DNA of 64,000 nt. Source: Alphaproteobacteria bacterium (GTDB taxonomy: Bacteria; Pseudomonadota; Alphaproteobacteria; RF32; CAG-239). Made by a program: the position numbers and the translations under genes. The DNA is taken from the NCBI GenBank assembly GCA_045597005.1, contig JAZODJ010000028.1, positions 12,768-76,767 of the forward strand, given 5' to 3'. Of the stretch, positions 2,889 through 47,928 are shown piece by piece (positions within the stretch are counted from its first letter, which is position 1; the number at the start of each line of letters is the position of its first letter). Below the pieces are notes generated by a model, which was given only the letters and a program-made list of their open reading frames with translations, made no database searches and was not told where the DNA came from.

Positions 2889-4289
2889 ATGTTAGATAAA
2901 GCTGAATTATTACTTCCTGCAGGCTCTCTTGTAAAACTGAAAACGGCAATATTGTATGGTGCCGATGCGGTATATGCCGGAACACCTGATATGTGTCTGC
3001 GCGCTCAATCCAAATTTTCACTGGAAGACCTCAAAGAAGGAATTGATTTTGTGCATTCTCACGGCAAAAAAATATATCTGACACTAAACCTTTTTATGCA
3101 TAATCGAGATGTCGAAAAACTCCCTACTTTTGTGGAAACCCTGCGACAACTAAAGCCCGATGGAGTTCTAATTGCCGACCCGGGAGTTTTCCAATACGTC
3201 AAAGAAAACGCGCCTGAATTAAATTTATTTGTATCAACTCAGGCCAATATTTGCTCTTGGCAAGCTGTCAAATTTTGGCAATCACAAGGTGCTAAACTTT
3301 GTGTTTTAGGTCGTGAAGTAACATTTGCCGAAGCAAAAGAAATAAGAGAAAAATGTCCTGACATCCTACTTGAAACATTTATGCACGGAGCAATGTGTAT
3401 GTCCTATTCCGGACGTTGTCTAATCTCAAACTATCTGGCTGATCGCTCAGCCAATCAGGGAAAATGCGCTCACTGTTGCCGTTGGCATTACAAATTACAT
3501 TTGCGGCTAAAAGATGGCTCAATCAAAGAAATTGTTATTGATGAAAATAACAAAGATTCTTTTGAATTTTTACTTGAAGAAGAATTTCGTCCCGGCGAAT
3601 ATTTTGAAATTGTTGAAGATGAAAATGGTGGTTACATCTTAAACTCAAAAGATATGTGCCTAATGCCTCGTTTGCCTGATTTATTGTCAGCCGGCATAGA
3701 TTCGCTTAAAGTTGAAGGTCGCAACAAAACCGAATATTATGCAGGTATCGTTGCCAGAACATATCGCCAAGCAATTAATGATTGGTACAAATCTCCTGAT
3801 AACTGGGATTACAATCAATATATGGACGAATTACATACTTTGCAAAACAGAGGATACTGCCTGGGTTTTCATGATGGCAAATTAACTAATATAAGCCAAA
3901 ATTATGAATACACCCGCACCTTAGGCGACTGGTTGTTTGCTGGTTCGATAATTGAATGGCAAGATGACGACGCTATCTTCGAAATTCGTAATTTTATTAA
4001 TCAAAATGAAGAATTTGAATTTTTGATGCCGGGAAGCCTTAAAAATATAAAATTAAAACTATCTGAGTTCGAAGATGCCTCAACCGGCGAGATATCAACT
4101 AAAGTATCCGCCGGTCAAGGTAAAGCCATCCGCATAAAACCAAATTGTTGGAATTTACCGATAACTGAAGTAAAAAAACTTTTACCGCAATACACTATTG
4201 CGCGTAAGTTTGCTCCTCTTACAGGCACAAACAAAACTATGCTTGATAACAAAGGACAAGAATTTTGCAAACTTTGCAATAAAGATTAA
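2889..4289 (+). CDS. peptidase U32 family protein
   Basis: 466 aa; ELLLPAGS start and U32 signature ETFMHGAMCMSYSGRCLIS. Confidence 0.85.
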   Translation: MLDKAELLLPAGSLVKLKTAILYGADAVYAGTPDMCLRAQSKFSLEDLKEGIDFVHSHGKKIYLTLNLFMHNRDVEKLPTFVETLRQLKPDGVLIADPGVFQYVKENAPELNLFVSTQANICSWQAVKFWQSQGAKLCVLGREVTFAEAKEIREKCPDILLETFMHGAMCMSYSGRCLISNYLADRSANQGKCAHCCRWHYKLHLRLKDGSIKEIVIDENNKDSFEFLLEEEFRPGEYFEIVEDENGGYILNSKDMCLMPRLPDLLSAGIDSLKVEGRNKTEYYAGIVARTYRQAINDWYKSPDNWDYNQYMDELHTLQNRGYCLGFHDGKLTNISQNYEYTRTLGDWLFAGSIIEWQDDDAIFEIRNFINQNEEFEFLMPGSLKNIKLKLSEFEDASTGEISTKVSAGQGKAIRIKPNCWNLPITEVKKLLPQYTIARKFAPLTGTNKTMLDNKGQEFCKLCNKD

Positions 4290-7190: not shown

Positions 7191-8549
7191 ATGACATCTT
7201 CCTTTAAACTAAGCGGAACCCTGGTATTGGTAGCAATCATGGCTTCACTTGGCGGATTATTGTCCGGTTTTGATATGGGTGTTATTTCCGGCGCTCTGCT
7301 TTATATCAATCAAACATGGGAACTCTCACCTTTGGCTCAAGGATGGCTCGTTTCATCGGCAATTGTCGGTTCAGTTATCGGAGCTGCTGCCAACGGCATC
7401 TTAGCTGATATTTACGGGCGTAAAAAAATTATTATTGCAACTGCCATTATCTTCATAATTGGATCCATAATGTGCGGTTATGCCACCACCGCAAATTGGC
7501 TCATTTTTTCACGTATAGTAATCGGCATTGCTGTCGGCATGATCAGTTTTGTCGCCCCTATTTACTTGTCCGAAATAGCTCCGGAAAAAATCAGAGGTTC
7601 TTTGGTATCTTTATACCAATTAGCACTAACTGCCGGTATATTATTATCATACCTTATTAACCGTATCTTTGCCAACTTTGAATTCAATTGGAGATGGATG
7701 TTAGGTTCCGGTGCAATCCCTGCCGTCATTCTTTTAATAGGAATTTTATTTCTTCACGATACTCCCAGATGGCTCATAAGCAAAAACAAAATTAATGAAG
7801 CTCGTGAAGTATTCAAAAAAATATACCCGGAAAATGATGTTGAAAATCACATTAACGAAATCAAAGAAACGTTATCATCATCTACGAATAATAAAAAAGT
7901 CAAATTACAAAAATGGATGTTTATGCCGATATTTGTAGGCGTCGGTTTAATGTTTGTTCAAATATGTACCGGTATTAACACCATCATATATTATACCCCT
8001 ACTATTTTTAATTTGGCTGGATTTGCTGACAATATCACTGCAATATATGCAACAATAGGCGTTGGTATTGTAAATTTCTTAATGACTTTTGTTGCAATCG
8101 CTTATATTGATAAATTTGGCCGCAAACCACTATTATACATCGGCTTAATCGGAATGCTGATTAGTATGTTTGCCCTCTCAGGTTCATTTGCCATGGGCGA
8201 TTCCGGCCGTTGGTTAGCTGTCGGATCAGTTGTACTATACATTGCTTCTTTTGCAATGAGTCTTGGCCCGGTTTGTTGGATTATGGTATCTGAAATTATG
8301 CCCTTAAAAATACGCGGACTTGCAATGTCTGCAGCAACGGTATCAAACTTTGCTTTTAACTTTATTGTTGTTTTAAGTTTTTTACCCATGCTCGAAATTT
8401 TAGGAAAATCCACAACATTTTTCATCTTTGGCCTTATCACAATATTATCACTGTTTTTTGTATACTTTTTTGTTCCCGAAACAAAAGGAATTTCTCTTGA
8501 AAAAATTGAAGAAAACTGGCATAAAGGTATATCACCACGTAAATTTTAA
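7191..8549 (+). CDS. MFS sugar-porter family transporter
   Basis: 452 aa, 12 TM-like segments; GRKK, DTPRWL, PETKG sugar-porter signatures. Confidence 0.85.
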   Translation: MTSSFKLSGTLVLVAIMASLGGLLSGFDMGVISGALLYINQTWELSPLAQGWLVSSAIVGSVIGAAANGILADIYGRKKIIIATAIIFIIGSIMCGYATTANWLIFSRIVIGIAVGMISFVAPIYLSEIAPEKIRGSLVSLYQLALTAGILLSYLINRIFANFEFNWRWMLGSGAIPAVILLIGILFLHDTPRWLISKNKINEAREVFKKIYPENDVENHINEIKETLSSSTNNKKVKLQKWMFMPIFVGVGLMFVQICTGINTIIYYTPTIFNLAGFADNITAIYATIGVGIVNFLMTFVAIAYIDKFGRKPLLYIGLIGMLISMFALSGSFAMGDSGRWLAVGSVVLYIASFAMSLGPVCWIMVSEIMPLKIRGLAMSAATVSNFAFNFIVVLSFLPMLEILGKSTTFFIFGLITILSLFFVYFFVPETKGISLEKIEENWHKGISPRKF

Positions 8550-8568
8550 AACCTGATAAGGACTATTG

Positions 8569-9627
8569 ATGAAAATATTGGTTGGGATGAGCGGCGGCGT
8601 TGATTCAAGTGTCGCCGCACTTCTTCTAAAACAAGCCGGTCATGATGTTATCGGCGCAACAATGAGCATTTGGGATGATTCTGATACCTTCCGTCAATTA
8701 ACCGGTAAAGGTTGCTTTTCTTCTCACGATGAAGACATATCTCAGGCCAAACAAATATGTCAAAACTTAAACATTCCTCATCTGATAGTCGACTGCACAG
8801 ATGAATTCAAGCAAATTGTCCTAAACAATTTTCGCAACGAATACAAAGCTGGAAGAACCCCAAATCCATGTGTAGTATGCAATTCGATGATTAAATTCAG
8901 TGTCCTTCCCGATAGCGCACGAAAACAAGGAATTATCTTTGATAAATTTGCTACAGGTCATTATGCACGTATCCATTTTAATAAAGCCACAGGGCTTTAC
9001 CAAATTATGCGTGGCCTAGACAGCAAAAAAGATCAATCGTACTTTCTTTATCGTCTCACACAAGAGCAATTAGCCGGAACAATTCTTCCTCTGGGAGAAA
9101 AAAACAAATTTGAAATCCGTGAATTAGCCAAACAAGCCGGCTTATCAGTTTCCGATAAACCTGATAGTCAAGATTTCTATACCGGACCATTAAATGATAT
9201 TTTGCAATTTCCCGCTCAATCAGGAACTTTCATCAATAAAGAAGGAAAAATACTAGGGCATCATAACGGTTACTGGAATTTTACTATTGGACAACGGCGA
9301 GGACTGGGCATATCAGCCGATAAGCCTTTATACGTTATTGATATCATTAAAGAGAGCAATAAAATCATTGTAGGATATGCTGATGAATGCCTTCAAACAA
9401 CTCTTACTGCTTCAAACTGGGTTTGGCAAATCCCAATACCTCAACAAACTTTTCATTGTCAAGCTCGTATTCGTTCATCTCAAACACCTGTTGATGTACG
9501 TCTGACTCCTTTATCAAACGATACTTTTGAAGTTACTTTTATGTCTCCTCAAAGTGCCATAACTCCAGGACAATCTGTTGTTTTGAACAATAACAACATG
9601 TTAATTGGAGGAGGAATAATAAACTAA
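8569..9627 (+). CDS. mnmA: tRNA 2-thiouridine(34) synthase
   Basis: MKILVGMSGGVDSS PP-loop, NPCVVCN, DQSYFLY; ATG 8569 preferred over TTG 8566. Confidence 0.9.
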   Translation: MKILVGMSGGVDSSVAALLLKQAGHDVIGATMSIWDDSDTFRQLTGKGCFSSHDEDISQAKQICQNLNIPHLIVDCTDEFKQIVLNNFRNEYKAGRTPNPCVVCNSMIKFSVLPDSARKQGIIFDKFATGHYARIHFNKATGLYQIMRGLDSKKDQSYFLYRLTQEQLAGTILPLGEKNKFEIRELAKQAGLSVSDKPDSQDFYTGPLNDILQFPAQSGTFINKEGKILGHHNGYWNFTIGQRRGLGISADKPLYVIDIIKESNKIIVGYADECLQTTLTASNWVWQIPIPQQTFHCQARIRSSQTPVDVRLTPLSNDTFEVTFMSPQSAITPGQSVVLNNNNMLIGGGIIN

Positions 9628-10471: not shown

Positions 10472-10705
10472 ATGATATCAGAAAAACCCGAAGGCACAAT
10501 CACCAAAGATTTTACCAAACAACGTTACACAGATATTGATGACAAAGATTTCATTATCAGACCTTTAAAATATATGAAACTAATCGATTCAGTAATTGGT
10601 CTTGATGATGAATGCGAATTTGAAAAAAATATGTTTAACTTTGGAGATGATGAAAACTTACCTGATTCTGATAGAGTTACAGATAAACGATGCAAAAACA
10701 ACTAG
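10472..10705 (+). CDS. small acidic hypothetical protein
   Basis: 77-aa ORF with GGAGAAAAAATATG context; no family recognised. Confidence 0.35.
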   Translation: MISEKPEGTITKDFTKQRYTDIDDKDFIIRPLKYMKLIDSVIGLDDECEFEKNMFNFGDDENLPDSDRVTDKRCKNN

Positions 10706-11208
10706 TCATCATCATCCAAAACATCATCTTTACTATGCAAATACTGGCTTTTTGACATGGCAACAACTAAATCATATACATGTTTTGCAGCTTGTCTGTT
10801 AGCTATTTTGTAATATGCTCGTACCAATTCAAGTGTTTCTTGCTTTAACATCGGATCAACATTAAATACTTCCATATCTTCACTCAAAGCCATCTCTGCA
10901 TCAGGATTACTAAACATTCTTGGACTTTGTTTTGCAACTGTTTTATCCATATCATCATAAAAAAACGACACAGATGTCTCTAGCACGACACTAAAATCCC
11001 ACAAACGACTGGCACTAACTCTGTTCAATCCTTTTTCATATTTTTGAATTTGCTGAAATGTAAGCCCTAATAAAGATCCTAATTTTTCTTGGCTCCACCC
11101 CAGCAAATTACGACGAAGTCTAATTCTTTTACCAACATGAATATCAACTGGATTAGGTTCCCCTAACGGAGTACGTCCTCTAGACGCCTTACAAGACATA
11201 GATTTCAT
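10702..11208 (-). CDS. XRE-family helix-turn-helix transcriptional regulator
   Basis: 168 aa; IRLRRNLLGWSQEKLGSLLGLTFQQIQKYEKGLNRVSASRL is a Cro/C1-type HTH. Confidence 0.75.
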   Translation of the reverse strand: MKSMSCKASRGRTPLGEPNPVDIHVGKRIRLRRNLLGWSQEKLGSLLGLTFQQIQKYEKGLNRVSASRLWDFSVVLETSVSFFYDDMDKTVAKQSPRMFSNPDAEMALSEDMEVFNVDPMLKQETLELVRAYYKIANRQAAKHVYDLVVAMSKSQYLHSKDDVLDDDD

Positions 11209-37394: not shown

Positions 37395-38648
37395 TCAATA
37401 AATCGGAAACTCGGCACAAAGTTTCATAACTTTTTTTGCTGTCTCTGCTATAACCTTATCCTCATCATTTGTTCCGATAGCCTCAACAACATCTGCAATC
37501 CAATTTCCTATTTGTTCAAATTCTTTTTCCCCAAATCCTCTGGTTGTTCCTGCCGGAGTTCCTAATCTAATTCCCGAAGTAACTTTTGGCGGCATAGGGT
37601 CAAAAGGAATTGCATTTTTATTACATGTCATATGAGCTTTATCCAATGCATCAGCAACGAGGTCTCCTGTTACATTTTTGGGTCTCAAATCCACCAACAA
37701 CAAGTGAGTATCCGTTCCTCCCGAAACCAAATCAAGACCTCTTTCCTTTAGTGTATCTCCTAAAACTTTGGCATTACTTACAACTTGCGCTGCATATTTC
37801 CTAAACTCTTCTGTTAAATCTTCTTTAAAACAAACAGCCTTAGCAGCAATAACATGCTCCAAAGGCCCCCCTTGAGACCCCGGAAAAATAGCCGAATTTA
37901 TCTTCTTTGCCAAATCTTCTCTGTTTGTCAAAATCATTCCACCACGTGGACCTCTCAATGTTTTATGAGTAGTCGTAGTAACAACATCCGCCCATTGTAA
38001 AGGATTCGGATGCACTCCGCCGGCAACCAACCCCGCAAAATGAGCCATATCTACCATCAAATATGCCCCTACCTCGTCAGCAATTTTTCTAAATCTGGCA
38101 AAATCAATTTGACGAGGATATGCAGACCCTCCGGCGATAATCAATTTAGGGTTATTTTCTTTTGCTAAACGCTCCACGTCATCATAATCAATCAACCCGC
38201 TGTCCTTTTTAACTCCATATGCAACAGCGTTAAGCCATTTTCCTGAAATAGATACTTTTGATCCATGAGTTAAATGTCCTCCGGCATCCAAACTCATCCC
38301 TAAAATTGTATCAAACGGTTGCAACAATGCCAAATAAACAGCCGTATTTGCTTGACTACCCGAATGTGGCTGAACATTAACAAACTCTGCATTAAACAAT
38401 TTTTTTGCGCGTTCTATCGCCAAACTTTCAATTCCATCAACAAACTCACACCCGTGATAATATCTTCTTCCCGGATATCCTTCTGCATATTTGTTTGTTA
38501 AAATCGACCCTTGTGCTTCCAAAACAGCTTTTGAAACAATATTTTCCGAAGCAATCAACTCCACTTGATTTTGTTGGCGATTAAACTCTTTTTCAATAAG
38601 TTCAAAAATATCTTTATCTTCTACTTGCAACTCTTCTTTAAAATCCAT
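37395..38648 (-). CDS. glyA: serine hydroxymethyltransferase
   Basis: 417 aa; [25 protein letters not shown] site. Confidence 0.95.
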
Positions 38649-38661
38649 ATCTCAGCCTCCT

Positions 38662-39084
38662 TTATCCAAGCTCTGCAATTCGACGACAATGTCTCTCACC
38701 ATTAGAAAACGGAGTCGTCAAAAAAACATCCAAATATGCAAGAACATTTTCTTTTGATTGTGTTCTGGCTCCAAAAACCGCGACATTAGCATCATTGTGT
38801 TCACGAGTTAAAGATGCAACATCCTTATTGTACAAAATAGCGGCTCTAATTCCTTTGTGACGATTTGCAGCAATAGATATACCGATTCCCGTTCCACAAA
38901 TCAATACTCCAAAATCAGCTTGTCCACTGTTTATTACATCTACAAGCTTATCTGCAATCAATGGATAATCACACGATTCTTCAGAAAAAGTTCCGATATC
39001 TAGCCAATCGATATCCTGACGCTCATTCTTTAAAAATTCTTTTAATTCAAAGCCCCCATGATCAGCACCTATCACAATTTTCAT
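38662..39084 (-). CDS. rpiB: ribose-5-phosphate isomerase B
   Basis: MKIVIGADHGGFELK start (ATG 39084), LICGTGIGISIAANR; the upstream 57-codon extension of the ORF is probably not translated. Confidence 0.9.
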   Translation of the reverse strand: MKIVIGADHGGFELKEFLKNERQDIDWLDIGTFSEESCDYPLIADKLVDVINSGQADFGVLICGTGIGISIAANRHKGIRAAILYNKDVASLTREHNDANVAVFGARTQSKENVLAYLDVFLTTPFSNGERHCRRIAELG

Positions 39085-39159
39085 ACACCATCCCCCATAA
39101 AAAAACTTACAACTTTCACAATCATATAACAAAGTTGTGATAAAAAAACATTTTTTTTT

Positions 39160-39187
39160 AAAAAAGATGTTGACGTGTGAAAAAATT
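39160..39187 (+). promoter_or_regulatory. candidate sigma70-type promoter for the tRNA-Cys/tRNA-Asn pair
   Basis: TTGACG (39160..39165), 16-nt spacer, TATATA (39182..39187), about 45 nt upstream of tRNA-Cys. Confidence 0.4.
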
Positions 39188-39232
39188 ATTGTATATATAA
39201 TCTCACCGATTGAGAGAACGGTAACCATGAAT

Positions 39233-39307
39233 GGCCGGTTGGCAGAGTGGCTCATGCAGAGGACTGCAAATCCTTGTACATCGGTTCGATTCCGGTACCG
39301 GCCTCCA
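39233..39307 (+). tRNA. tRNA-Cys (GCA)
   Basis: 75 nt cloverleaf folded by hand: acceptor GGCCGGT/ACCGGCC, anticodon loop CTGCAAA, T-loop GGTTCGATTCC, encoded CCA. Confidence 0.95.
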
Positions 39308-39322
39308 AATATACCGTATTAT

Positions 39323-39397
39323 TCCGGCTTAGCTCAGCGGTAGAGCAATCGGCTGTTAACCGATTGGTCGCCTGTTCGAATCAGGCAGCCGGAGCCA
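39323..39397 (+). tRNA. tRNA-Asn (GTT)
   Basis: 75 nt: TCCGGCTTAGCTCAGCGGTAGAGC D-arm, anticodon stem ATCGG/CCGAT with loop CTGTTAA, T-arm CCTGTTCGAATCAGG, encoded CCA. Confidence 0.95.
39376..39397 (+). repeat. left copy of 22-nt direct repeat (tRNA-Asn 3' end; attL-like)
   Basis: TCGAATCAGGCAGCCGGAGCCA, identical to 47431..47452. Confidence 0.85.
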
Positions 39398-39405
39398 ACA
39401 TCCAG

Positions 39406-39440
39406 ATAAAGTCTTGTTTTTGCAAGACTTTATTTTTTTT
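39406..39440 (+). terminator. intrinsic terminator after tRNA-Asn
   Basis: 11-bp stem ATAAAGTCTTG/CAAGACTTTAT (39406..39416 / 39423..39433), then T7. Confidence 0.75.
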
Positions 39441-39583
39441 ATAAAATCGTAAAATCAAAAATTGCTAATAACTTCTGCTAATAAATTTCCTAAGTATGAG
39501 CCAACAAAAGGACACATACTGAACAGCCCAAATGGCAAACATCAATACATCAAAGCTAATGTTGATGAGTAAAAATCTCATCA

Positions 39584-41197
39584 TTAAAAATGTAAAGATA
39601 ATCCTATATTAAAACTATCTGAATATTTAGCATCGCTATAATGGAAATAATCAAAATAAACTTCATTATTTTCAGATACTTTATAACCAATATAAAAATT
39701 GTATTTTTCATCAAAACCTATATTATTTTGTTTGGCATTAAAATATTTTTCATAAGAAGTGATAATTTTTATATTATCACTAATTTTTGAAATAGCACCA
39801 ATTTGGGGAGAAATGTAAAAATTTGAGTAATCATCATAATGATAGCCAATTTTAGGTAAAAAATATACAGAAGTTGTTGAGATTTTTTTACTTACACCTA
39901 AACCAAACTCAAAAATAGGTTTTAATTCTGTTTCTTCATTGAATAAGTCATTTTCAAAACCTAAACGAAAATATTTAGAAAAACTATTTGTTGATGAATA
40001 ATCAATAATTGATTTCATCTTTAATATATCAATTTTATCAATGGTCAGTTTTTTATCCGCATTGAAGTAATTGAATGATACATCAAACATTTTGCTTTCT
40101 AAATCAGAAAAATAAGCATCTGAAATATCCCTAATATCCTGATAGACAGGACTAATATTCATATTAGTAATATTATTAGATAAATCTTGTGAAATTGACA
40201 ATCTTGTCGGTTTGGGAGCATTACCTATATAATTTAATCCAAATTTTTCTATTACTGTTCTTTGTGTTTCCGTCGGCTCTATGCTTATGTCTGATATTTT
40301 ATTATCGTCATGTAATTTTTGGATGTACTCAACAGGAGTAACAAATGGCTTTATTGTTTCCATGGAAAAATCTTTGTTTGCAACTTTTAATATACTTATT
40401 AAAGCCGTGTTACAATTATGAGATAATAAAGAATATTTTATATTTTTTTCTTTTAATTCCCATAAATGTTCTTTTAATCGTACTTTATCTTCATCATTTA
40501 AATATAATTTAAATTCCCATAATGAGCGTTGTTCTTTGTTTAAATATTCTGATGCTTTTTCTACATATGGCGATAGGATATAAACACCATCAATACCTGT
40601 TGTTAATACATCAATGTAAAATTTTATATTATTGGCATTATTAAAAGCCGCAAAATAACTAAACGCATGACTACGAGCGTTGCCATCAATTCTCAAAAAA
40701 GTATGTCCCATCATAGAAGATGGACTAAAATTATTTTCTGATGCAAAAACTACATATACATTTTCAAATAATACATTGTTTTTATATTCTTCATATTCCT
40801 TACAATGTGGTTTAGGAAATAATTCTTTGGATAAATTTAATGATTTAACAATATAATTAAACCTTGCAGGATACATACATATAGTATGTTTATCATTTAA
40901 TGATGCTTCATTTATTAATGATCTAAGTGTTGCTTCATATTCAGATTTTGGATTTATATATCCATCTGATGATAGGAAAAAATCGCTATTTGAATTTATA
41001 ACGCTTTTCCTACCATCATAATGTAATATATTTTTCCATTCTAATGAATCATAAAACTCTGCAGTTGTTTTTTTACTTAATTCTTCATATGTATAATTAG
41101 CATTAGCTGTATTACCATAAAGAAGAAAAAATAGCAAAAAACTACTTAATAGAGCATGAATCTTTACGATATACTGGAACAATGATATTATTATCAT
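39584..41197 (-). CDS. DUF4105 / Lnb N-terminal-domain-like protein with outer-membrane-type C-terminus
   Basis: 543-aa ORF (to 41215); signal-like ALLSSFLLFFLLYGNTANA; SSMMGHTFLRIDG motif, which I associate with DUF4105 from memory; ends IGLSLHF (terminal aromatic, beta-barrel-like); start uncertain, ATG 41197 overlaps the upstream gene by 56 nt. Confidence 0.55.
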   Translation of the reverse strand: MIIISLFQYIVKIHALLSSFLLFFLLYGNTANANYTYEELSKKTTAEFYDSLEWKNILHYDGRKSVINSNSDFFLSSDGYINPKSEYEATLRSLINEASLNDKHTICMYPARFNYIVKSLNLSKELFPKPHCKEYEEYKNNVLFENVYVVFASENNFSPSSMMGHTFLRIDGNARSHAFSYFAAFNNANNIKFYIDVLTTGIDGVYILSPYVEKASEYLNKEQRSLWEFKLYLNDEDKVRLKEHLWELKEKNIKYSLLSHNCNTALISILKVANKDFSMETIKPFVTPVEYIQKLHDDNKISDISIEPTETQRTVIEKFGLNYIGNAPKPTRLSISQDLSNNITNMNISPVYQDIRDISDAYFSDLESKMFDVSFNYFNADKKLTIDKIDILKMKSIIDYSSTNSFSKYFRLGFENDLFNEETELKPIFEFGLGVSKKISTTSVYFLPKIGYHYDDYSNFYISPQIGAISKISDNIKIITSYEKYFNAKQNNIGFDEKYNFYIGYKVSENNEVYFDYFHYSDAKYSDSFNIGLSLHF

Positions 41198-41537
41198 ATT
41201 TCCACATCGCTCCATTGGATATATCTGTTGTTGTTCCTGTCCATAAATTGAAATAATTAGCGAGGAAGAACATGTCCAAATGATTATCAGCCATTGTTAC
41301 TGTTTGTCTATGACATTTATCTTCTTTTACAGATATTGTTAAAGGTGTATTTCCCTTTGATACAGATATAACTGTTGGAAGAGTTACTGATTGCATACCA
41401 TCTGTGCTATTAATATCTGCTTTTACAGTATCTCCATTAGATGTCATAACATTAATATTTTGGGTTGTTCCATTAAACATCGTTGCACATGATGATAAAA
41501 CAAACATTATGCTACATATAAAACTTATCTTTTTCAT
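41142..41537 (-). CDS. lipoprotein (paralog A)
   Basis: 131 aa; lipobox VLSS-C; shares NINVMTS-G, TISV/TIQVK-GKC and TTD---GAMWKYD with the neighbouring gene. Confidence 0.7.
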   Translation of the reverse strand: MKKISFICSIMFVLSSCATMFNGTTQNINVMTSNGDTVKADINSTDGMQSVTLPTVISVSKGNTPLTISVKEDKCHRQTVTMADNHLDMFFLANYFNLWTGTTTDISNGAMWKYDNNIIVPVYRKDSCSIK

Positions 41538-41554
41538 AGGCAGTCCTTATATGT

Positions 41555-41950
41555 TTATTTTAAGCATTGTGTTTTTTTATTTACATTTACAACGACAGTA
41601 GAATCGTATTTCCACATTGCACCAGTTGTAGAATCTGTTGTAGAACCCAAAATGCCACCTGTTAAAAGATTACCCCAAAACCATGGCTCAATGCTTGATT
41701 TTGCCACAGATACAGTTTCACTATTACATTTTCCATCTTTTACCTGTATTGTTATATCTTGGCTATCTTTTTGAACAGAAATAAGTTGAGGCAATTTCGT
41801 TTCTCTCATTCCATTTTTTGTAAAAATGGTTGCTTCTACTTCACTACCGTCACTTGTCATGACATTAATATTTTGAGTTTTTCCTTTTATTATTGAGGCA
41901 CAACCTGATAAAATCGTTGCTGTCATCAATAGTGCTACTAATTTTTTCAT
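41555..41950 (-). CDS. lipoprotein (paralog B)
   Basis: 131 aa; lipobox ILSG-C; AAGGAAG SD 8 nt upstream; tandem paralog of 41142..41537. Confidence 0.7.
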   Translation of the reverse strand: MKKLVALLMTATILSGCASIIKGKTQNINVMTSDGSEVEATIFTKNGMRETKLPQLISVQKDSQDITIQVKDGKCNSETVSVAKSSIEPWFWGNLLTGGILGSTTDSTTGAMWKYDSTVVVNVNKKTQCLK

Positions 41951-41982
41951 ATGATTTAACTTCCTTTTCTTTAATTGTAATT

Positions 41983-42293
41983 AAAAAGAAAACCACCTTC
42001 TTAAAGGTGGTCGGAGAGTTCATCAATCATATTGCTTTAAATGATTCTTTTAGCCTTTAAAGTCAAAAAACTTCTGAACATACGCCAAAAGCTCCCCGAC
42101 CAAAAGAGTTTGAAACTATTTTAATCGGGGATATATCTATTATTAGCCTAATAAACAGCTAACAATATGACGATGTTATATCCTAACACCGAAAGCAATA
42201 AGAGCCGATGAAAGCTCCGTACCACATTGGTACTAAGTGTAAAATGTATTCCACACCTGACATCATATTAAAAAGCTGATAGTTAAAATGCAA
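41983..42293 (-). promoter_or_regulatory. promoter plus ~270-nt structured leader with terminator/antiterminator upstream of the lipoprotein operon
   Basis: Minus strand: TTGCAT-17 nt-TAATAT (complement of 42288..42293 and 42265..42270); terminator ACCACCUU/AAGGUGGU (41992..42011) plus UUUUCUUUUU; competing 10-bp helix (42092..42101 with 42009..42018). Confidence 0.45.
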
Positions 42294-42385
42294 TTAAAAT
42301 CATATAATTATTGGAAAATTATTTTGCTTTTTTATGTAAATTTGATTACACTGATAGCATACTGCATTTATGATGGTTTTATAAA

Positions 42386-42598
42386 ATGAAAAAAATATTC
42401 TTTGGGTTGATTTTGTTGGGAATTGTACTACCTGTTTTGGCTGCGGATAGCCCCATAGTAGTATTAAATGTTAAAAGAATGATATATCACAGTCCCAGTT
42501 GTCAGTGGGCGCATAGATGTACTAAAAATTGTATAAAAACAACCAAACAAGAAGCTATTGAACACGGAGCCAGACCTTGCAAGGTCTGTGGAGGTTAA
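42386..42598 (+). CDS. small secreted Ada-like zinc-binding-domain protein
   Basis: 70 aa; signal peptide MKKIFFGLILLGIVLPVLAA; YHSPSCQW...C...EA...GARPCKVC resembles the Ada metal-binding / sunset-type domain. Confidence 0.55.
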   Translation: MKKIFFGLILLGIVLPVLAADSPIVVLNVKRMIYHSPSCQWAHRCTKNCIKTTKQEAIEHGARPCKVCGG

Positions 42599-43782
42599 TA
42601 CTCTTCCTCAACTTGTTCCAAAGAACTTTCAACTAATTTTGCCAAATTTTCATTTATGTTACTTTTCATTTTTTCATATAAACTTTGTTGTGTATTAATA
42701 TATTCTTGATTTTCATTAAAAATGAAACTTTTTAATGTATTAAAACGTATCATTCGGTTAGTTTGTTTATTTAATCCTTCTGATGAAGCTAATTTATATT
42801 TTTTTATATCATCAAAAATTCCTTTCTCAGCAGGAGTTACACTATTGTCAATATTCATATCATTATCGAATATTCCATACATTTTTACAAAATCTTCCAA
42901 TCTATGTGTTATTACATCCGAAAACGTAATGTTTTCTCGCATCATATAGAAAAGTATGGAAAATACCGTATATAATTGGGATTTTTTTTGCAAAAACTTT
43001 ATCAGTATAGGTGAACCTAATAAAAATTCAATTTGAGTTGTTGCATTTATAATAGCTTGACGATCAATATCAGCATCATTATAATTCATTTTTAAATCTT
43101 CATATGCTCTATTTAAAGCTTTTTGATCACTTTGATCTATGATACCAGATCTAAACAAAAGAATAAGAGATGCACAAAATTCAACATCTTTCATTCTTTT
43201 GACATCAGCATTATTAAATAATTTATACTTCTCCCAAATAGATAAATCGGAAAGTTCTCGAGCCAATGCAGCAAACTCTCCAGATAGACTATTTCGTTTT
43301 TCTTGACTATTTAGGTTATAATCCGTAAGATTTAACCGTCTGAACATATTCACAATTTCATCTCTTGTAACTTTTTCATTTATATCTACAATCATTAATT
43401 GATAATTCCAGACTTCTTTTTTTGTTCCATCATCTAAATCTCTAAAATAACGATCCCCCCATTTTTCTTTTGATGTATCTTCTAATAAGGCATTTTTCTT
43501 TAATTTAAATTCATTGTTTACAAACTCAGTAATTGTCTTTATCCTTTGTTGTCCATCAACAATATGTGTAATGGACTCTCCTGTTTCTGGATTTGTATCA
43601 GCTTTCCATAAAAACAATTCTGGTATAATAAAGTTTAACAGAATTGTTTCAATTAATCTAATTTTATCATTTTCGTTCCAAACAGAGCGACGTTGATATG
43701 AATCATCCACAATCAGAGATTCTTCTGTAAACATATTATAAATATCACTAATAGTTTTTCGATTATTAGAAAATTGAAACAT
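42595..43782 (-). CDS. DUF262 (ParB/GmrS-like N-terminal domain) protein lacking a recognisable DUF1524/HNH domain
   Basis: 395 aa; SYQRRSVW and IVDGQQR signatures; no His-Me finger motif seen in the C-terminal half. Confidence 0.85.
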   Translation of the reverse strand: MFQFSNNRKTISDIYNMFTEESLIVDDSYQRRSVWNENDKIRLIETILLNFIIPELFLWKADTNPETGESITHIVDGQQRIKTITEFVNNEFKLKKNALLEDTSKEKWGDRYFRDLDDGTKKEVWNYQLMIVDINEKVTRDEIVNMFRRLNLTDYNLNSQEKRNSLSGEFAALARELSDLSIWEKYKLFNNADVKRMKDVEFCASLILLFRSGIIDQSDQKALNRAYEDLKMNYNDADIDRQAIINATTQIEFLLGSPILIKFLQKKSQLYTVFSILFYMMRENITFSDVITHRLEDFVKMYGIFDNDMNIDNSVTPAEKGIFDDIKKYKLASSEGLNKQTNRMIRFNTLKSFIFNENQEYINTQQSLYEKMKSNINENLAKLVESSLEQVEEEY

Positions 43783-43783
43783 A

Positions 43784-44398
43784 CTATACTCCTTTGGGTT
43801 CTTTTATAGTTTTACAAGCCTTTACAATTCCAGATAATTGATATTCTTCAAGGTCTTCCCAACTTCGATAAATTCTGTAATTTATAGGATGCATTACAGA
43901 TAGTTTATCTTGTAATGATTTGTTTGTTGGATCTTTCATCTTTTGCCATACTGTACGAATATCTTCTATTCCTGTTAAAAATTTTTCATCAATATATCCT
44001 CTAAAAATAGATCTTGTAAGATTCACATAAAAGTATTCTTGATATACTCGGAAAGCCTTTTTCTTTCTTAGTTGCTCCCAATAATATGAATATAATTTTT
44101 CTGAAACTAAAGCAATATCTATATCAGACGAATCTTCCATAAACGGTTTTAGACATTTTAACGGTGATAAACTATATCCGAGTTTTGCACTTCCTACAAG
44201 TTGAGATGAATGAAAACTTATATTAAAATTTTTTGATATAATTTCTTTAAAACAATCTAAACGATCTAATATTTCATCTGATGGAACTTTTAAATATTCA
44301 TTAAAATACCAATTATATGATTTAACTATATGTTTAAGATAGAAATCTTTTGCATCCATAGACAATAAATCGTTTTTTATATCTGTTAAACATACCAT
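43784..44398 (-). CDS. hypothetical protein, putative Pol-beta-fold nucleotidyltransferase
   Basis: 204 aa; QLVGSAKLGYS ... SSDIDIALVS fits hG[GS]...DxD of minimal NTases; start ATG shares one base with the MTase stop (TAATG). Confidence 0.5.
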   Translation of the reverse strand: MVCLTDIKNDLLSMDAKDFYLKHIVKSYNWYFNEYLKVPSDEILDRLDCFKEIISKNFNISFHSSQLVGSAKLGYSLSPLKCLKPFMEDSSDIDIALVSEKLYSYYWEQLRKKKAFRVYQEYFYVNLTRSIFRGYIDEKFLTGIEDIRTVWQKMKDPTNKSLQDKLSVMHPINYRIYRSWEDLEEYQLSGIVKACKTIKEPKGV

Positions 44399-45492
44399 TA
44401 TGCAGCCTTTCTTGTGTCTTCATAATATATATTTAAATAATCAAAAATATCTTGTGCAATTCCCTTTCCTAAAAGATATGGAACACCATTACCTATCATT
44501 TTAAACTTAAGGGATAGAGGAATATTATTAGGCAAACAAAATTCTTTTGGCAAAGATTGAATAGAAAGAGCCTCAGCTATGCTAATTCTGCGTAGTTCAT
44601 ATGGATGCAAGTGAACTTCATTATTTCCATATGCCGATGTTGGTGCGTATCTCCAACGATGTAGCCTCTTAAATGACTTTCGAGAAACGTCTCCTTCTTG
44701 TATTGTAAGGTATTTTTGCAAATTTTTTACTTTAAATATATCGTTTGCATTTTGGTGTTTTTTTACATCATTCTTAATAAACCAGTGCTCAACTGTTAAT
44801 TCTTCAATAATATTAGTTGGCTTTTCTATATATCCATTTTCATTAAACTCATTCAAGGTTGGCCAATTAAGTAATTTTATATCTTTTAAATTAAACTTTT
44901 TATGCTGACCAATAGAAAATTTACAACAATTTTGAAATATATTTCTATTGAAGCCAATAAGAAACAACCTATCTCTATATTGAGGAACGCCATATTCTAG
45001 GGCATTTTCTATGGAATCAAATAATTCATAGCCATTTTCATCTAAACGTTTTTTTATTTTCTCATAAAAAATTTTATGTTTACTAGTTTGATACAATCCT
45101 TTTACATTCTCTAAAACAAAAAAGTCTGGCCGACGTTTAATAATCAGATTTACATAAACATCTGTTAACCTTCCATTTTCACCTTCAACACCTTTGTTTT
45201 TTCCTGCTGTCGAAAAATCTGGACAAGGTGGTCCCCCTATGAATCCTACAAAATCCGAATCTGTTTTTTCTGAAAAAGTTTTGTTCCATACTTCATCTTT
45301 TAGATATTCTTCCACACTAAGGCTAGAATATCTATTTTCTGCTAATATTTTCTTTCGTGTGCTCTTATATGTTTTTAGAAAAACACTATTATACTCATTA
45401 ACAAATGAGATATTAAAGCCAGCTTTCTCAAACCCTAGGTCTAAAATTCCCAACCCTGAGAAAAAAGAATATACTTCCGCTTTCACTTTCAA
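44398..45492 (-). CDS. DNA (cytosine-5)-methyltransferase
   Basis: FSGLGILDLG (motif I), GGPPCPDFS (IV), FVLENVKGL (VI), QYRDRLFLIG (VIII), GNGVP (X); TTG 45492 or GTG 45486 start. Confidence 0.9.
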   Translation of the reverse strand: MKVKAEVYSFFSGLGILDLGFEKAGFNISFVNEYNSVFLKTYKSTRKKILAENRYSSLSVEEYLKDEVWNKTFSEKTDSDFVGFIGGPPCPDFSTAGKNKGVEGENGRLTDVYVNLIIKRRPDFFVLENVKGLYQTSKHKIFYEKIKKRLDENGYELFDSIENALEYGVPQYRDRLFLIGFNRNIFQNCCKFSIGQHKKFNLKDIKLLNWPTLNEFNENGYIEKPTNIIEELTVEHWFIKNDVKKHQNANDIFKVKNLQKYLTIQEGDVSRKSFKRLHRWRYAPTSAYGNNEVHLHPYELRRISIAEALSIQSLPKEFCLPNNIPLSLKFKMIGNGVPYLLGKGIAQDIFDYLNIYYEDTRKAA

Positions 45493-45602
45493 CCTTATTC
45501 AAAAAAAACTCTATAGTAAAATTTGCAAATATGTAGAATATTTTTATTCTATAGAGAGACCTTTTGCAAGTATATAATGGAATTAATGCAATTTTAATTT
45601 AT

Positions 45603-46919
45603 TCACTCCATATCCAGCAGCCACTCAAGCACATTCATTCGTTTAATACCGTTGTTTTCGCCAGAACCAAAGTCCATTGTCAGCAAAAATTTAGGGTAAT
45701 TATCTTCTATAGCTTCAAGTGGAGCAAGCTCTCGTTCTAATATGTCTGTTCCCAACACATTCAATGCAACTTGATAATATTCAACTATTCCGCCACTTTT
45801 TTTAGCAACAAAATCAACCTCAATATTTTTACCACCTTTGACTATTTTACCTACTGAAACTTGATAACCACGTCTTAACAGCTCTAAGTAAACCACATTT
45901 TCTAAAATGTGTCCTTGATCCATATCTTTGATACCCAACAATGCCGTACGTAGCCCTATATCCGCAACATAATATTTAGCATTACTATCAAGATATTGTT
46001 TGCCTTTGATATCATAACGGTCGCATTTATAAAGCAAAAAGCTATCTAATAACCCTTGCACCATTGTATCTATAGTTGGCACTGATATTTTATGTCCGCC
46101 AGCATTTAAACCTTTTTCTATGTTGCGGATAGATGTTTCATTACCGATATTATCAAACATATATTTTACCACGGCATCAAGCTTATTAGTATCTGCGATA
46201 TTAAAACGTTTAACTATATCCTTTTGAATTGTATTCAAATAAACAGTATCTAGCAAATAATCGCTTATTAGTTGTTTATCATAAACTAAGTTTAAGGTTT
46301 GAGGGAATCCACTTTCAGTTATATAATGAGAATAAACTGCCATTGGGTTATGCAAGCCTTCTATCTCATTTTTAGTTCTAGCATAAATGCCCGCAAACAT
46401 TGAATATGCAGAAAAATATTCCTTAAAAGAAAATGGTTGCATTTTAATTTCAATATATCTGCCACCTAACGAATTAGCCAAATCGCTGGAAAACATATAG
46501 GCATTTGAACCTGTCAAATACAAGTCAACATTATTTTGTAATCTTAACGCATTAGCGACTTTATCCCAATCTTTCAATAACTGTATTTCATCAATAAAGA
46601 CATAATTCATTTTTTTGGGGTTAAGAATTGATAAAACATAGTCCAATAACTTATTATAACCGACTAAAAAGTTTTCCTTATCATAAGAAAGACCGATTTT
46701 GTTAGTCTGTACCAAATCTTCCAGATTTATATTTACAATCTGGCTATCGTCAGCTTGTCTATTAGTGATTAAATCAAATTGATAAAGATAAAACAATTTG
46801 GATTTACCGCAACGTCTTACCCCTGTGATTATTTTTATTAAATCACTTTGCCCTTGCCATTTTTTCAGTTGCTCTATATATTGTGGTCTACCGACTATTC
46901 TTTCAGATGCACTTTGCAT
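45603..46919 (-). CDS. AAA_14/DUF4143-type ATPase
   Basis: 438 aa; Walker A GVRRCGKS, Walker B NYVFIDEIQ, C-terminal EVDFVAKK region as in DUF4143 proteins. Confidence 0.8.
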   Translation of the reverse strand: MQSASERIVGRPQYIEQLKKWQGQSDLIKIITGVRRCGKSKLFYLYQFDLITNRQADDSQIVNINLEDLVQTNKIGLSYDKENFLVGYNKLLDYVLSILNPKKMNYVFIDEIQLLKDWDKVANALRLQNNVDLYLTGSNAYMFSSDLANSLGGRYIEIKMQPFSFKEYFSAYSMFAGIYARTKNEIEGLHNPMAVYSHYITESGFPQTLNLVYDKQLISDYLLDTVYLNTIQKDIVKRFNIADTNKLDAVVKYMFDNIGNETSIRNIEKGLNAGGHKISVPTIDTMVQGLLDSFLLYKCDRYDIKGKQYLDSNAKYYVADIGLRTALLGIKDMDQGHILENVVYLELLRRGYQVSVGKIVKGGKNIEVDFVAKKSGGIVEYYQVALNVLGTDILERELAPLEAIEDNYPKFLLTMDFGSGENNGIKRMNVLEWLLDME

Positions 46920-47430
46920 TGTTTATTCTCCTTAAGCTATATGTTAATTATATTTAACAAAAAATAAAAAATCAAGTATTTTGTAAAATACATTTAACAA
47001 AATCTCAATACTATCGTTTTTCGTAAAACAGAATTAACAATCAAATTGTTCCGCATTTTTTCGCACACGTAAACAGATTTGTCTTAAAACTGCATAATTT
47101 ATCGTCAAAAATCAATTTCTGCACTCAAAACGCAAGTAATCAAAGGCAAACAGCATATGAGTAGTCAAGTATTCCTTGACTACTGATTAAAATACGGAAA
47201 AACGGGGGATTTTACTTTTTGCAGTTATTCGGAAATTCCAAACAGTTCAATTTTTACGCCCACAATTCCTTAAAACCATTATTGACAGCCGATTACAGAT
47301 GATTTATGTTATTAGCAGTGCTAATAACTTTTGCTAATACTTTCGAAATTTAGGTCGGAGCCAGTATTTTGATAAGTTATTGATTTTACATAACAACAAG
47401 GCTTGTTTTATGAAAATATTTCTGGATTTG

Positions 47431-47452
47431 TCGAATCAGGCAGCCGGAGCCA
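47431..47452 (+). repeat. right copy of 22-nt direct repeat (displaced tRNA-Asn 3' end; attR-like)
   Basis: TCGAATCAGGCAGCCGGAGCCA, identical to 39376..39397; no tRNA body upstream of it. Confidence 0.85.
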
Positions 47453-47454
47453 AT

Positions 47455-47485
47455 AAAAAAGCCACCCTTTTGGGTGGTTTTTTTT
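47455..47485. terminator. bidirectional intrinsic terminator
   Basis: AAAAAA G CCACCC TTTT GGGTGG TTTTTTTT (stem 47462..47467 / 47472..47477). Confidence 0.75.
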
Positions 47486-47535
47486 ATTGTTCTGTTTGGA
47501 AACCATCTTCAACAGAAGGCCTCTTATATTTTATC

Positions 47536-47871
47536 TTATCCGAATAAATGACCGCCATGCGCTACATCAGATGCCGACAAATCATTTAAAGCAATACAAA
47601 CAAACTCATGTTCAACACCAAAATTTTCTACTGCAAAATTTGTCAAAACATCAACCACTGCTTGCTTATTTCTAAACCCGATTGATGCCAATTCAATCCA
47701 CGCTCCTTTAGTTTTTTTACTCCCTCCAAATGCCAAATTTTCATTATATTTTACTTCAGCACATACATAAGAAACCGGTTTTCCTAAAACATCAGCCACA
47801 ACTTTAGCGACTTTCTCAACCACATTAGTATCATTACTAAAACCATTAGTTTTAATTGTCAAAAACGGCAT
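47536..47871 (-). CDS. MIF / tautomerase-superfamily protein
   Basis: ATG 47871 five nt after GGAGG gives MPFLTIKTN (Pro-1); GKPVSYVCAEVKYNENLAFGGSKK...ASIG parallels the MIF GKPPQYIAVHV...MAFGGS...HSIG. Confidence 0.8.
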   Translation of the reverse strand: MPFLTIKTNGFSNDTNVVEKVAKVVADVLGKPVSYVCAEVKYNENLAFGGSKKTKGAWIELASIGFRNKQAVVDVLTNFAVENFGVEHEFVCIALNDLSASDVAHGGHLFG

Positions 47872-47928
47872 TTCATCCTCCAAACTATTTTTAAGGTCGC
47901 TGATGTTTTTCAGCGACCTTTCACAACA

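Follow-up and report, generated by a model that had tools for sequence, protein, structure and literature searches.

How does a block of accessory genes come to lie between a tRNA-Asn gene and an exact copy of that gene's own 3' end, with no recognisable integrase between the two? The question is raised by an interval of about 8 kb in a 64,000-nt stretch of DNA (hereafter the window; C28:12768-76767 of assembly G000) from an uncultured gut alphaproteobacterium, whose assembly comprises 1.46 Mb in 31 contigs. A first-pass annotation had read the repeat as the attL/attR scar of site-specific integration into a tRNA gene, a reading now supported by conserved element ends, an empty site and deviant composition. 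The best explanation, held at a probability of about 0.85, is that positions 39398-47430 form a horizontally acquired island inserted in tRNA-Asn by a tyrosine integrase, and that the integrase was later lost by internal deletion. The target and the two junctions are made up of the following features.

39323..39397, plus strand: tRNA-Asn(GTT), the integration target (ARAGORN; Rfam tRNA 69.6 bits)
39376..39398, plus strand: attL core, spanning tRNA-Asn from the T-loop through the 3' T-stem to the acceptor 3' strand; all 23 nt recur in attR
39404..39443, plus strand: element-borne intrinsic terminator hairpin, kept in all family members (terminator scan, alignment, 12 metagenome copies)
47431..47453, plus strand: attR core, the displaced tRNA-Asn 3' fragment
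47455..47484, plus strand: original host terminator of the tRNA-Cys/tRNA-Asn operon, found directly 3' of tRNA-Asn in most relatives
47536..47883, minus strand: MIF/tautomerase-like gene, which borders the hotspot on the right and is conserved there

The 1.46-Mb assembly has a single tRNA-Asn gene, preceded by its operon partner tRNA-Cys at 39233-39307 (both ARAGORN). The 22-mer TCGAATCAGGCAGCCGGAGCCA, described at first pass as an exact duplicate of the tRNA-Asn 3' end, is present in the window in two exact copies (39376-39397 and 47431-47452) in the same orientation, and the identity of the two cores extends one base further, to 23 nt. No other copy was found in the window with up to three mismatches allowed (0 expected from 100 shuffles), nor elsewhere in the assembly with up to two; the two island ends are the only genomic sites, and the 22-mer is not scattered over many unrelated positions. 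The terminator predicted behind each copy was also recovered, at 39404-39435 plus a T run behind attL and at 47455-47484 plus a T run behind attR. In the occupied site, the attL-side hairpin takes the place of the host terminator at the end of the tRNA operon.

The gene order rpiB, tRNA-Cys, tRNA-Asn ... MIF-like gene, 937-aa gene holds throughout the genus. The distance from tRNA-Asn to the MIF-like gene varies from 131 nt to 8.1 kb, as follows.

G019: 131 nt
G008, G018, G005 and G020: about 0.7-1.1 kb
G010, G023, G024 and G045: 2.6-4.4 kb
G004: 6.2 kb
Window: 8.1 kb

G019 provides the empty site that the first-pass annotation had proposed to look for. In this genome, tRNA-Asn is followed by a terminator, a second hairpin and then the stop of the MIF-like gene. 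In 12 of the 14 relatives examined, tRNA-Asn runs directly into an A-rich/GCCACCC-type terminator, the type that stands on the attR side in the window. The closest relative, G002, has flanks 91.6 and 93.4% identical to those of the window and carries a different filling of about 5.4 kb. Its match to the window ends at 39398 and resumes at 47446, inside the attR core, so that the limits of the island are the two repeats. The same island, with or without an integrase, was found in none of 55 genus genomes, which hold its separate modules and ends only; a block common to all relatives and lacking a flanking repeat is thereby not what the genus shows.

Composition sets the island apart as well. 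Its GC content is 29.0% against 35.5% for the genome (z = -4.2), below all 638 genome windows of 8 kb, and its tetranucleotide distance falls in the top 0.6% of genome windows. The A/T-richness that had been guessed at first pass without computation is real, and both of the composition measures suggested there are deviant.

Where did the integrase go? The left end of the island keeps a short series of landmarks.

39463..39486, plus strand: left-arm direct repeats TGCTAATAAC-TTC-TGCTAATAAAT (alignments)
39487..39519, plus strand: what is left of the integrase 5' untranslated region (98% identity with G013)
39519..39522, no strand assigned: deletion joint
39522..39572, plus strand: orphan 3' tail (16 codons, NSPNGKHQYIKANVDE, and the stop) of a 60-aa zinc-ribbon open reading frame (ORF)

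The reference for these landmarks is an integrase-bearing element of another genus member, G013. Its two contigs C6 (end) and C2 (start) share 127 nt, taken as the usual assembler overlap, and were joined; the resulting element measures 16.6 kb and is bounded by the same cores as the window island. Its left end is 98% identical to the window over 121 nt and consists of the hairpin, TGCTAATAAC-TTC-TGCTAATAAAT and then the integrase ATG. The G013 integrase has 576 aa, with an N-terminal DUF6538 (2.8e-12) and a C-terminal Phage_integrase domain (2.2e-9), and the R, HxxR and Y motifs are discernible in the alignment of the family integrases. A literature search for DUF6538 did not find the term.

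The match between the window and the G013 left end runs to 39519, 2 nt short of the position of the integrase ATG. Past the joint, the window reads AACAGCCC...GTTGATGAGTAA (39522-39572), which is 96% identical over 53 nt to the 3' end of a 60-aa Cys-rich ORF intact in G013 and G051 (MKKDDV...CQWCGH...CPNSPNGKHQYIKANVDE). An ORF tail without its head cannot be ancestral, and the window copy is therefore a deletion derivative. The G013 segment missing from the window, from the integrase ATG to codon 44 of the zinc-ribbon ORF, spans 8.3 kb and holds the integrase, two ORFs of no known function, a DEAD/Helicase_C protein, a resolvase, a DUF3768 protein and others. The integrase module was evidently deleted at the left end and did not decay at the right end. 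This amends the first-pass annotation in one respect: the absence of an integrase is borne out, but in this family the integrase gene adjoins attL and not the right repeat, beside which decayed remnants were to be sought, and the scar of its loss is the clean joint at 39519/39522.

As had been reported, no integrase or excisionase ORF exists in the interval; Pfam gave no match to either inside the island, and tblastn recovered no remnant. Integrase remnants at the right end were sought with two family integrases (word size 2, E<=1000) and rejected, the matches in 39300-47600 being noise only (best E 1.3). The stretch 46920-47430 does lack any ORF of 60 aa or more, as first described; it consists of the upstream region of an ATPase gene and the conserved right arm of the element. 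Other integrase-less copies break at other points. The G004 copy breaks right behind the repeats, G069 retains 16 integrase codons and the metagenome contig L088 retains 85 integrase residues; with breakpoints differing between these and the window, the losses look like independent decays.

Intact members of the family share one order: the att core (tRNA 3' end), the hairpin, two TGCTAATAA repeats and a gene of about 575 aa with DUF6538 and Phage_integrase domains reading inward. Their far end is a conserved right arm with more TGCTAAT repeats. The family extends to other tRNA genes. For example, the G014 integrase is 46% identical to that of G013 and lies behind tRNA-Gln with the same hairpin and repeats, and the G006 integrase is 34% identical and lies behind tRNA-Trp, with TGCTAAT repeats that are differently spaced. 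Public metagenome contigs were scanned for the exact 24-nt left repeat block. Twelve human-gut contigs have it, each with an integrase of the family type about 35 nt downstream (one truncated, two running off the contig), and most directly behind tRNA-Gln. Tandem arrays at the same tRNA site were seen in G004, G047 and metagenome contig L092. Both ends of the window island are the conserved ends of this family in the genus and in human-gut metagenomes.

The left-arm repeats are invariant in five aligned left ends and lie about 35-45 nt 5' of the integrase start in intact elements, which makes them candidate arm-type integrase-binding sites or an int operator. The same role, arm-type binding sites or operators, would fall to the TGCTAATAA repeats on both arms. 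The right arm is a single feature.

47259..47430, plus strand: conserved right arm of the element (alignments)

Its motifs are an invariant ATTGACAGC (-35-like), inverted and direct TGCTAAT repeats at 47308-47339, and TATTTTGATAAGTTATTGATTTTAC; the block TATTTnGATAAGyTATTGATTTTAC is likewise invariant among the family copies. Identity to the window arm is 90% in G013 and about 72% in G069, G014 and G021. A pseudo-core, AGGTCGGAGCCAG, lies at 47352-47364, about 70-80 nt 5' of the true core. Its sequence is GGTCGGAGCCA where the element targets tRNA-Asn and ACACCCCAGAC where the target is tRNA-Gln (window, L059, L058, L094), and it thus tracks the last bases (acceptor 3' strand) of the target tRNA. 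The pseudo-core may be a second core-type site for the integrase. Behind it there is a degenerate copy of the sequence that trails the core at attL. The string GCTAATAACTT[C/T]TGCTAATA occurs in the whole genome at the two island ends only. A structured small RNA from the TTGACA...TATGTT promoter-like site in the right arm was considered and found unsupported (fold z-score -1.5), and Rfam at E<=1 returned only tRNAs for the non-coding right end and for the GC-rich units of relatives described below.

Across species, the parts of the element resemble one another far more closely than the chromosome around them does. G013 is 98% identical to the window at the left end and 90% in the right arm, and 69% in rpiB (DNA); G004 is 99% identical at the left end and 94% in the ATPase module, with 69% in rpiB and 80% in the right flank. 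Element parts that are 90-99% identical where rpiB is about 69% identical point to recent horizontal transfer. Modules of the island also occur at other places. The module of Lnb-like gene, lipoproteins and leader lies behind tRNA-Trp in G050 (84-88% identical), and the ATPase module is found close to tRNA-Asp in G042 and in inverted orientation in G045.

The proposed course of events would be as follows. A tyrosine integrase would have inserted the island by site-specific recombination into the T-loop-to-3'-end segment of the single tRNA-Asn gene. The island would have brought its own tRNA 3' end and terminator, pushing the host 3' fragment and terminator 8 kb downstream; with these parts carried by the element, the tRNA operon stays intact. 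An internal deletion, of about 8.3 kb by comparison with G013, would then have begun 2 nt ahead of the integrase start codon and ended in codon 44 of the zinc-ribbon ORF, sparing both att cores and both arms. Any later movement would need a cognate integrase in trans, or carriage after a related element lands in one att site.

Does the host supply such an enzyme? The genome has six Phage_integrase matches, and the only long-type integrase among them is at tRNA-Ser on contig C7. It has 627 aa, is 23-32% identical to the family integrases (tblastn) and is accompanied by different arm direct repeats; action of this resident enzyme in trans was therefore judged unlikely. Its island (C7:435-2458, L080) is of the same architecture, with tRNA-Ser(GGA), a terminator, the repeats ATCGCAAAAATCGCAA / GTGATACAGCAGAGTGATACAGCA and the intact 627-aa tyrosine integrase. 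The tRNA-Asn-type integrase is present in one of 56 genus genomes (G013), and Pfam and tblastn revealed no cognate integrase in the 31-contig assembly. The first-pass view of an element immobilised or mobilised in trans stands accordingly. The island appears unable to move by itself and is, on this evidence, stranded. Since both att sites and arms are intact, a G013-type integrase could still cut it out, and accretion could lead to its co-mobilisation; an integrase of this type would be expected to act on the att sites of the window.

Several points weigh against the proposed history. The parent element was rebuilt from a metagenome-assembled genome (MAG), with two contigs joined by the 127-nt assembly overlap alone, and G013 and the window carry different cargo 3' of the zinc-ribbon gene; the 8.3 kb of the deletion is for these reasons an estimate from a relative, not from a direct ancestor. 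Pfam detected no relaxase, type IV secretion system or phage genes in the G013 element, in which several ORFs have no family. The assembly is in 31 contigs, and a cognate integrase may sit on unassembled DNA. The arm-site role proposed for TGCTAATAA is read from invariance and position.

A rival reading is an island that is still mobile, a satellite-like hitchhiker whose integrase would be encoded by a co-resident related element or by unassembled DNA and would act in trans. Its cores are exact, its arms match the integrase-bearing G013 element at 98 and 90% identity, and integrase-less copies with conserved ends recur (G004, G069 and G014:C13, with a truncated integrase in L088), outnumbering cognate integrases in the genus. 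The sole related integrase in the assembly is, however, the divergent tRNA-Ser enzyme with its entirely different arm repeats, and the varied breakpoints of the integrase-less copies speak for independent decay and not for a designed satellite; continued mobility is unlikely. It is far less likely that a non-canonical gene of the island's own, the AAA_14-DUF4143 ATPase being the candidate, supplies mobility, so that the island would not be integrase-less in function. This gene is situated directly inside the right arm in the window, G069 and G014:C13, with about 70% DNA identity, like the divergence of the arm. The complete G013 element, however, has a Fic gene there and no such ATPase, and every intact family member has a tyrosine integrase. 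The ATPase module also stands in the other contexts and orientations given above, and it matches a PADLOC defence-candidate family (3.7e-127). Least credible of all is a local duplication or chance match of 22 nt in native, fast-evolving DNA, for which nothing speaks beyond the missing integrase; zero matches are expected, the composition is an outlier, both repeats abut conserved element ends seen beside integrases elsewhere, and relatives have empty and differently filled sites. Acquisition by integration, followed by deletion of the integrase, explains these observations best.

What does the stranded island carry? The cargo listed in the first-pass annotation as accessory in type was found to be so by Pfam and PADLOC.

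39584..41215, minus strand: Lnb_N/DUF7843/DUF7840 envelope protein (Pfam)
41142..41950, minus strand: two paralogous 131-aa lipoproteins with lipobox Cys (41142-41537 and 41555-41950; translations)
41983..42293, minus strand: leader or non-coding RNA (ncRNA) of about 290 nt, ending in a terminator at 42012-41991
42386..42598, plus strand: 70-aa secreted Cys-rich protein with a weak Ada_Zn_binding match (Pfam)
42595..45492, minus strand: translationally coupled operon of C5 methyltransferase, nucleotidyltransferase (NTase)-like and DUF262 genes (Pfam, PADLOC, motif)
44398-45492, minus strand: C5 DNA methyltransferase (Pfam; PADLOC MTase_II 1.1e-132)
43784-44398, minus strand: 204-aa Pol-beta-type NTase-like protein (motif)
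42595-43782, minus strand: DUF262/GmrSD_N protein (Pfam)
45603..47100, minus strand: AAA_14+DUF4143 ATPase with about 180 nt of upstream region (Pfam; PADLOC candidate PDC-S01 3.7e-127)

The methyltransferase/NTase/DUF262 operon, which also has a PADLOC NsnA match (6.6e-34), is read as a putative defence module of restriction-modification-like type. The NTase reading of the 204-aa protein follows from a GS...DxD motif invariant across 30 homologues and from one homologue that carries PF18765; NCBIfam and PDB sequence searches with this protein gave no match. Its relatives are found in Clostridia, Oscillospiraceae, Synergistes and Proteobacteria MAGs, a spread across distant MAGs that fits horizontally moving cargo. 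The ATPase module is 93-94% identical in G004, G042 and G045. The Ada_Zn_binding match of the 70-aa protein (E 1.5e-4, 22.1 bits) is just under the cut-off of 23, and neither Pfam nor NCBIfam has a family match for the two lipoproteins. The cargo would protect against phage, to judge from its predicted functions. Its ORFs are intact and translationally coupled and have strong matches to defence models, a plausible reason for the retention of the island; as a small island of anti-phage and envelope functions, it is presumably maintained by selection on this intact cargo.

Two non-coding segments of the cargo recur elsewhere. The leader or ncRNA of about 290 nt sits upstream of the lipoprotein/Lnb-like operon, has no match in Rfam, and is multi-copy and conserved in essentially every genus genome. 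Three copies are present in G000 (C28, C26:126586-126892 and C22:14085-14183), each 5' of a secreted- or regulatory-looking gene. A non-coding segment of about 140 nt (47040-47180), 5' of the ATPase gene, has 80-86% identity to short stretches in other contexts (G014:C13, G069:C5, G051:C8, G012:C2 and G011:C19).

How does the island compare with known elements? The high-pathogenicity island of Yersinia and E. coli targets asn-tRNA and has short direct repeats, a P4-type integrase and siderophore cargo, and in E. coli immobilised variants have arisen by loss of a flanking repeat. Both this island and that of the window use an asn tRNA and have immobilised forms, but the window island lost its integrase and kept both repeats, and integrase, cargo and host phylum are all different, the first two unrelated.

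Cis-mobilisable elements (CIMEs) derive from the decay of an integrated element and can be re-mobilised if a related element enters one att site, a process known as accretion (PMC5704250, PMC6323972). Like the CIMEs of the Streptococcus ICESt1/ICESt3 type, the window island keeps attL and attR without genes for integration/excision and transfer, and relatives have tandem arrays at the same tRNA site (G004, G047, L092). It differs in that its G013-type parent has an integrase, a helicase and a resolvase, with no relaxase or conjugation genes detected by Pfam. An uncultured gut alphaproteobacterium serves as host, a long DUF6538-type protein acts as integrase in the family, and the family is described here from sequence. 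In its predicted features, the window island matches a CIME-like decayed island; since relaxase, type IV secretion system and phage genes were not detected in the G013-type parent, it is not called a derivative of an integrative and conjugative element (ICE) or integrative and mobilisable element (IME).

In the tRNA-gene islands mapped by Islander and TIGER (PMC4383910, PMC12424338), an integrase enters the 3' part of a tRNA gene, the gene is restored and the displaced fragment is left at the far end, as here; crossover in the T-stem/loop region and tandem arrays are likewise common to the window family. The Islander search demands an integrase gene within each candidate (PMC4383910). The window copy would therefore be filtered out, and it is recognisable through intact relatives only. 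Small defence islands on integrative elements carry mostly restriction-modification-like and candidate defence genes, as does the window island (PMC10201445); compared with these, its set of DUF262, NTase and m5C-methyltransferase with the PDC-S01 ATPase is predicted defence. The window island is an ordinary, well-understood kind of stranded genomic island.

The region behind tRNA-Asn holds a further class of sequence in other members of the genus. In roughly half of the genus genomes examined, tRNA-Asn is directly followed by GC-rich units in one to three tandem copies; their GC content is about 55%, that of the genome 36%. There are two types, type A of about 170 nt and type B of 210-230 nt. 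A terminator precedes each unit, whose last part is a copy of the upstream 3' end with a near-identical terminator. Units in relatives are found at L066 (G007:C10) 2078-2491, L065 (G002) 2268-2439, L061 (G047) 8529-8943, L073 (G020) 3204-3679 and L055 (G004) 10498-10905; those in G000 outside the window are at C7:45879-45999, C29:42423-42551, C29:15687-15787 and C11:54492-54818. Dispersed copies also occur behind other genes. Type B units contain hairpins as well as a long-range helix (GTTTTGT/ACAAAAC), and compensatory changes affect 8 of 20 predicted pairs. No unit matched Rfam, and ARAGORN identified no tmRNA in them. Two readings apply to them: minimal mobile units with att boundaries, or a family of ncRNAs that has not been described.

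At the tRNA-Trp site of G050 (L047, G050:C3, 230-1500 and 3880-3990), two GC-rich units bounded by 45-nt repeats (tRNA end and terminator) lie behind the tRNA gene. The Lnb/lipoprotein module comes next, between direct repeats of about 100 nt, one of which is split by a type-B unit; 4 nt (TGGA) appear to have been duplicated there. The contig L066 (94-2044), from another species representative, is 99.7% identical to window 37447-39398, up to the exact tRNA-Asn end, and beyond tRNA-Asn is 88% identical to a G000 region 35 kb away; this switch is due either to recombination at the hotspot or to a chimera in the MAG contig.

In this genus, tandem arrays occupy the DNA that follows tRNA genes (Asn, Gln, Trp, Pro, Thr) and certain terminators of protein genes; in them, swappable gene modules and GC-rich structured units of 170-230 nt are bounded by copies of the upstream 3' end and terminator. 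Few genomes have a cognate integrase, and the pseudo-core in the right arm varies with the tRNA that an element uses. A tentative and rather unlikely wider reading is that the island is one slot of an undescribed, lineage-wide, trans-acting and integron-like system of cassette capture and exchange, rather than one of many independent decays. If this were true, the cassette system would be a new way to organise accessory genes in reduced gut genomes.

The stranded island itself offers a clean example of island fixation, in which one deletion takes the integrase while att sites, arms and cargo remain, and it exposes a blind spot of island finders that need an integrase gene. For annotation, 39398-47430 is to be regarded as accessory DNA and the tRNA-Asn-to-MIF interval as a hotspot of strain variation. 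What emerges is a family of tRNA-targeting islands, unannotated until now, in Alphaproteobacteria of the human gut that have not been cultured. Its targets are tRNA-Asn, tRNA-Gln and tRNA-Trp, and its long DUF6538-type integrases are associated with the movement of defence genes between species.

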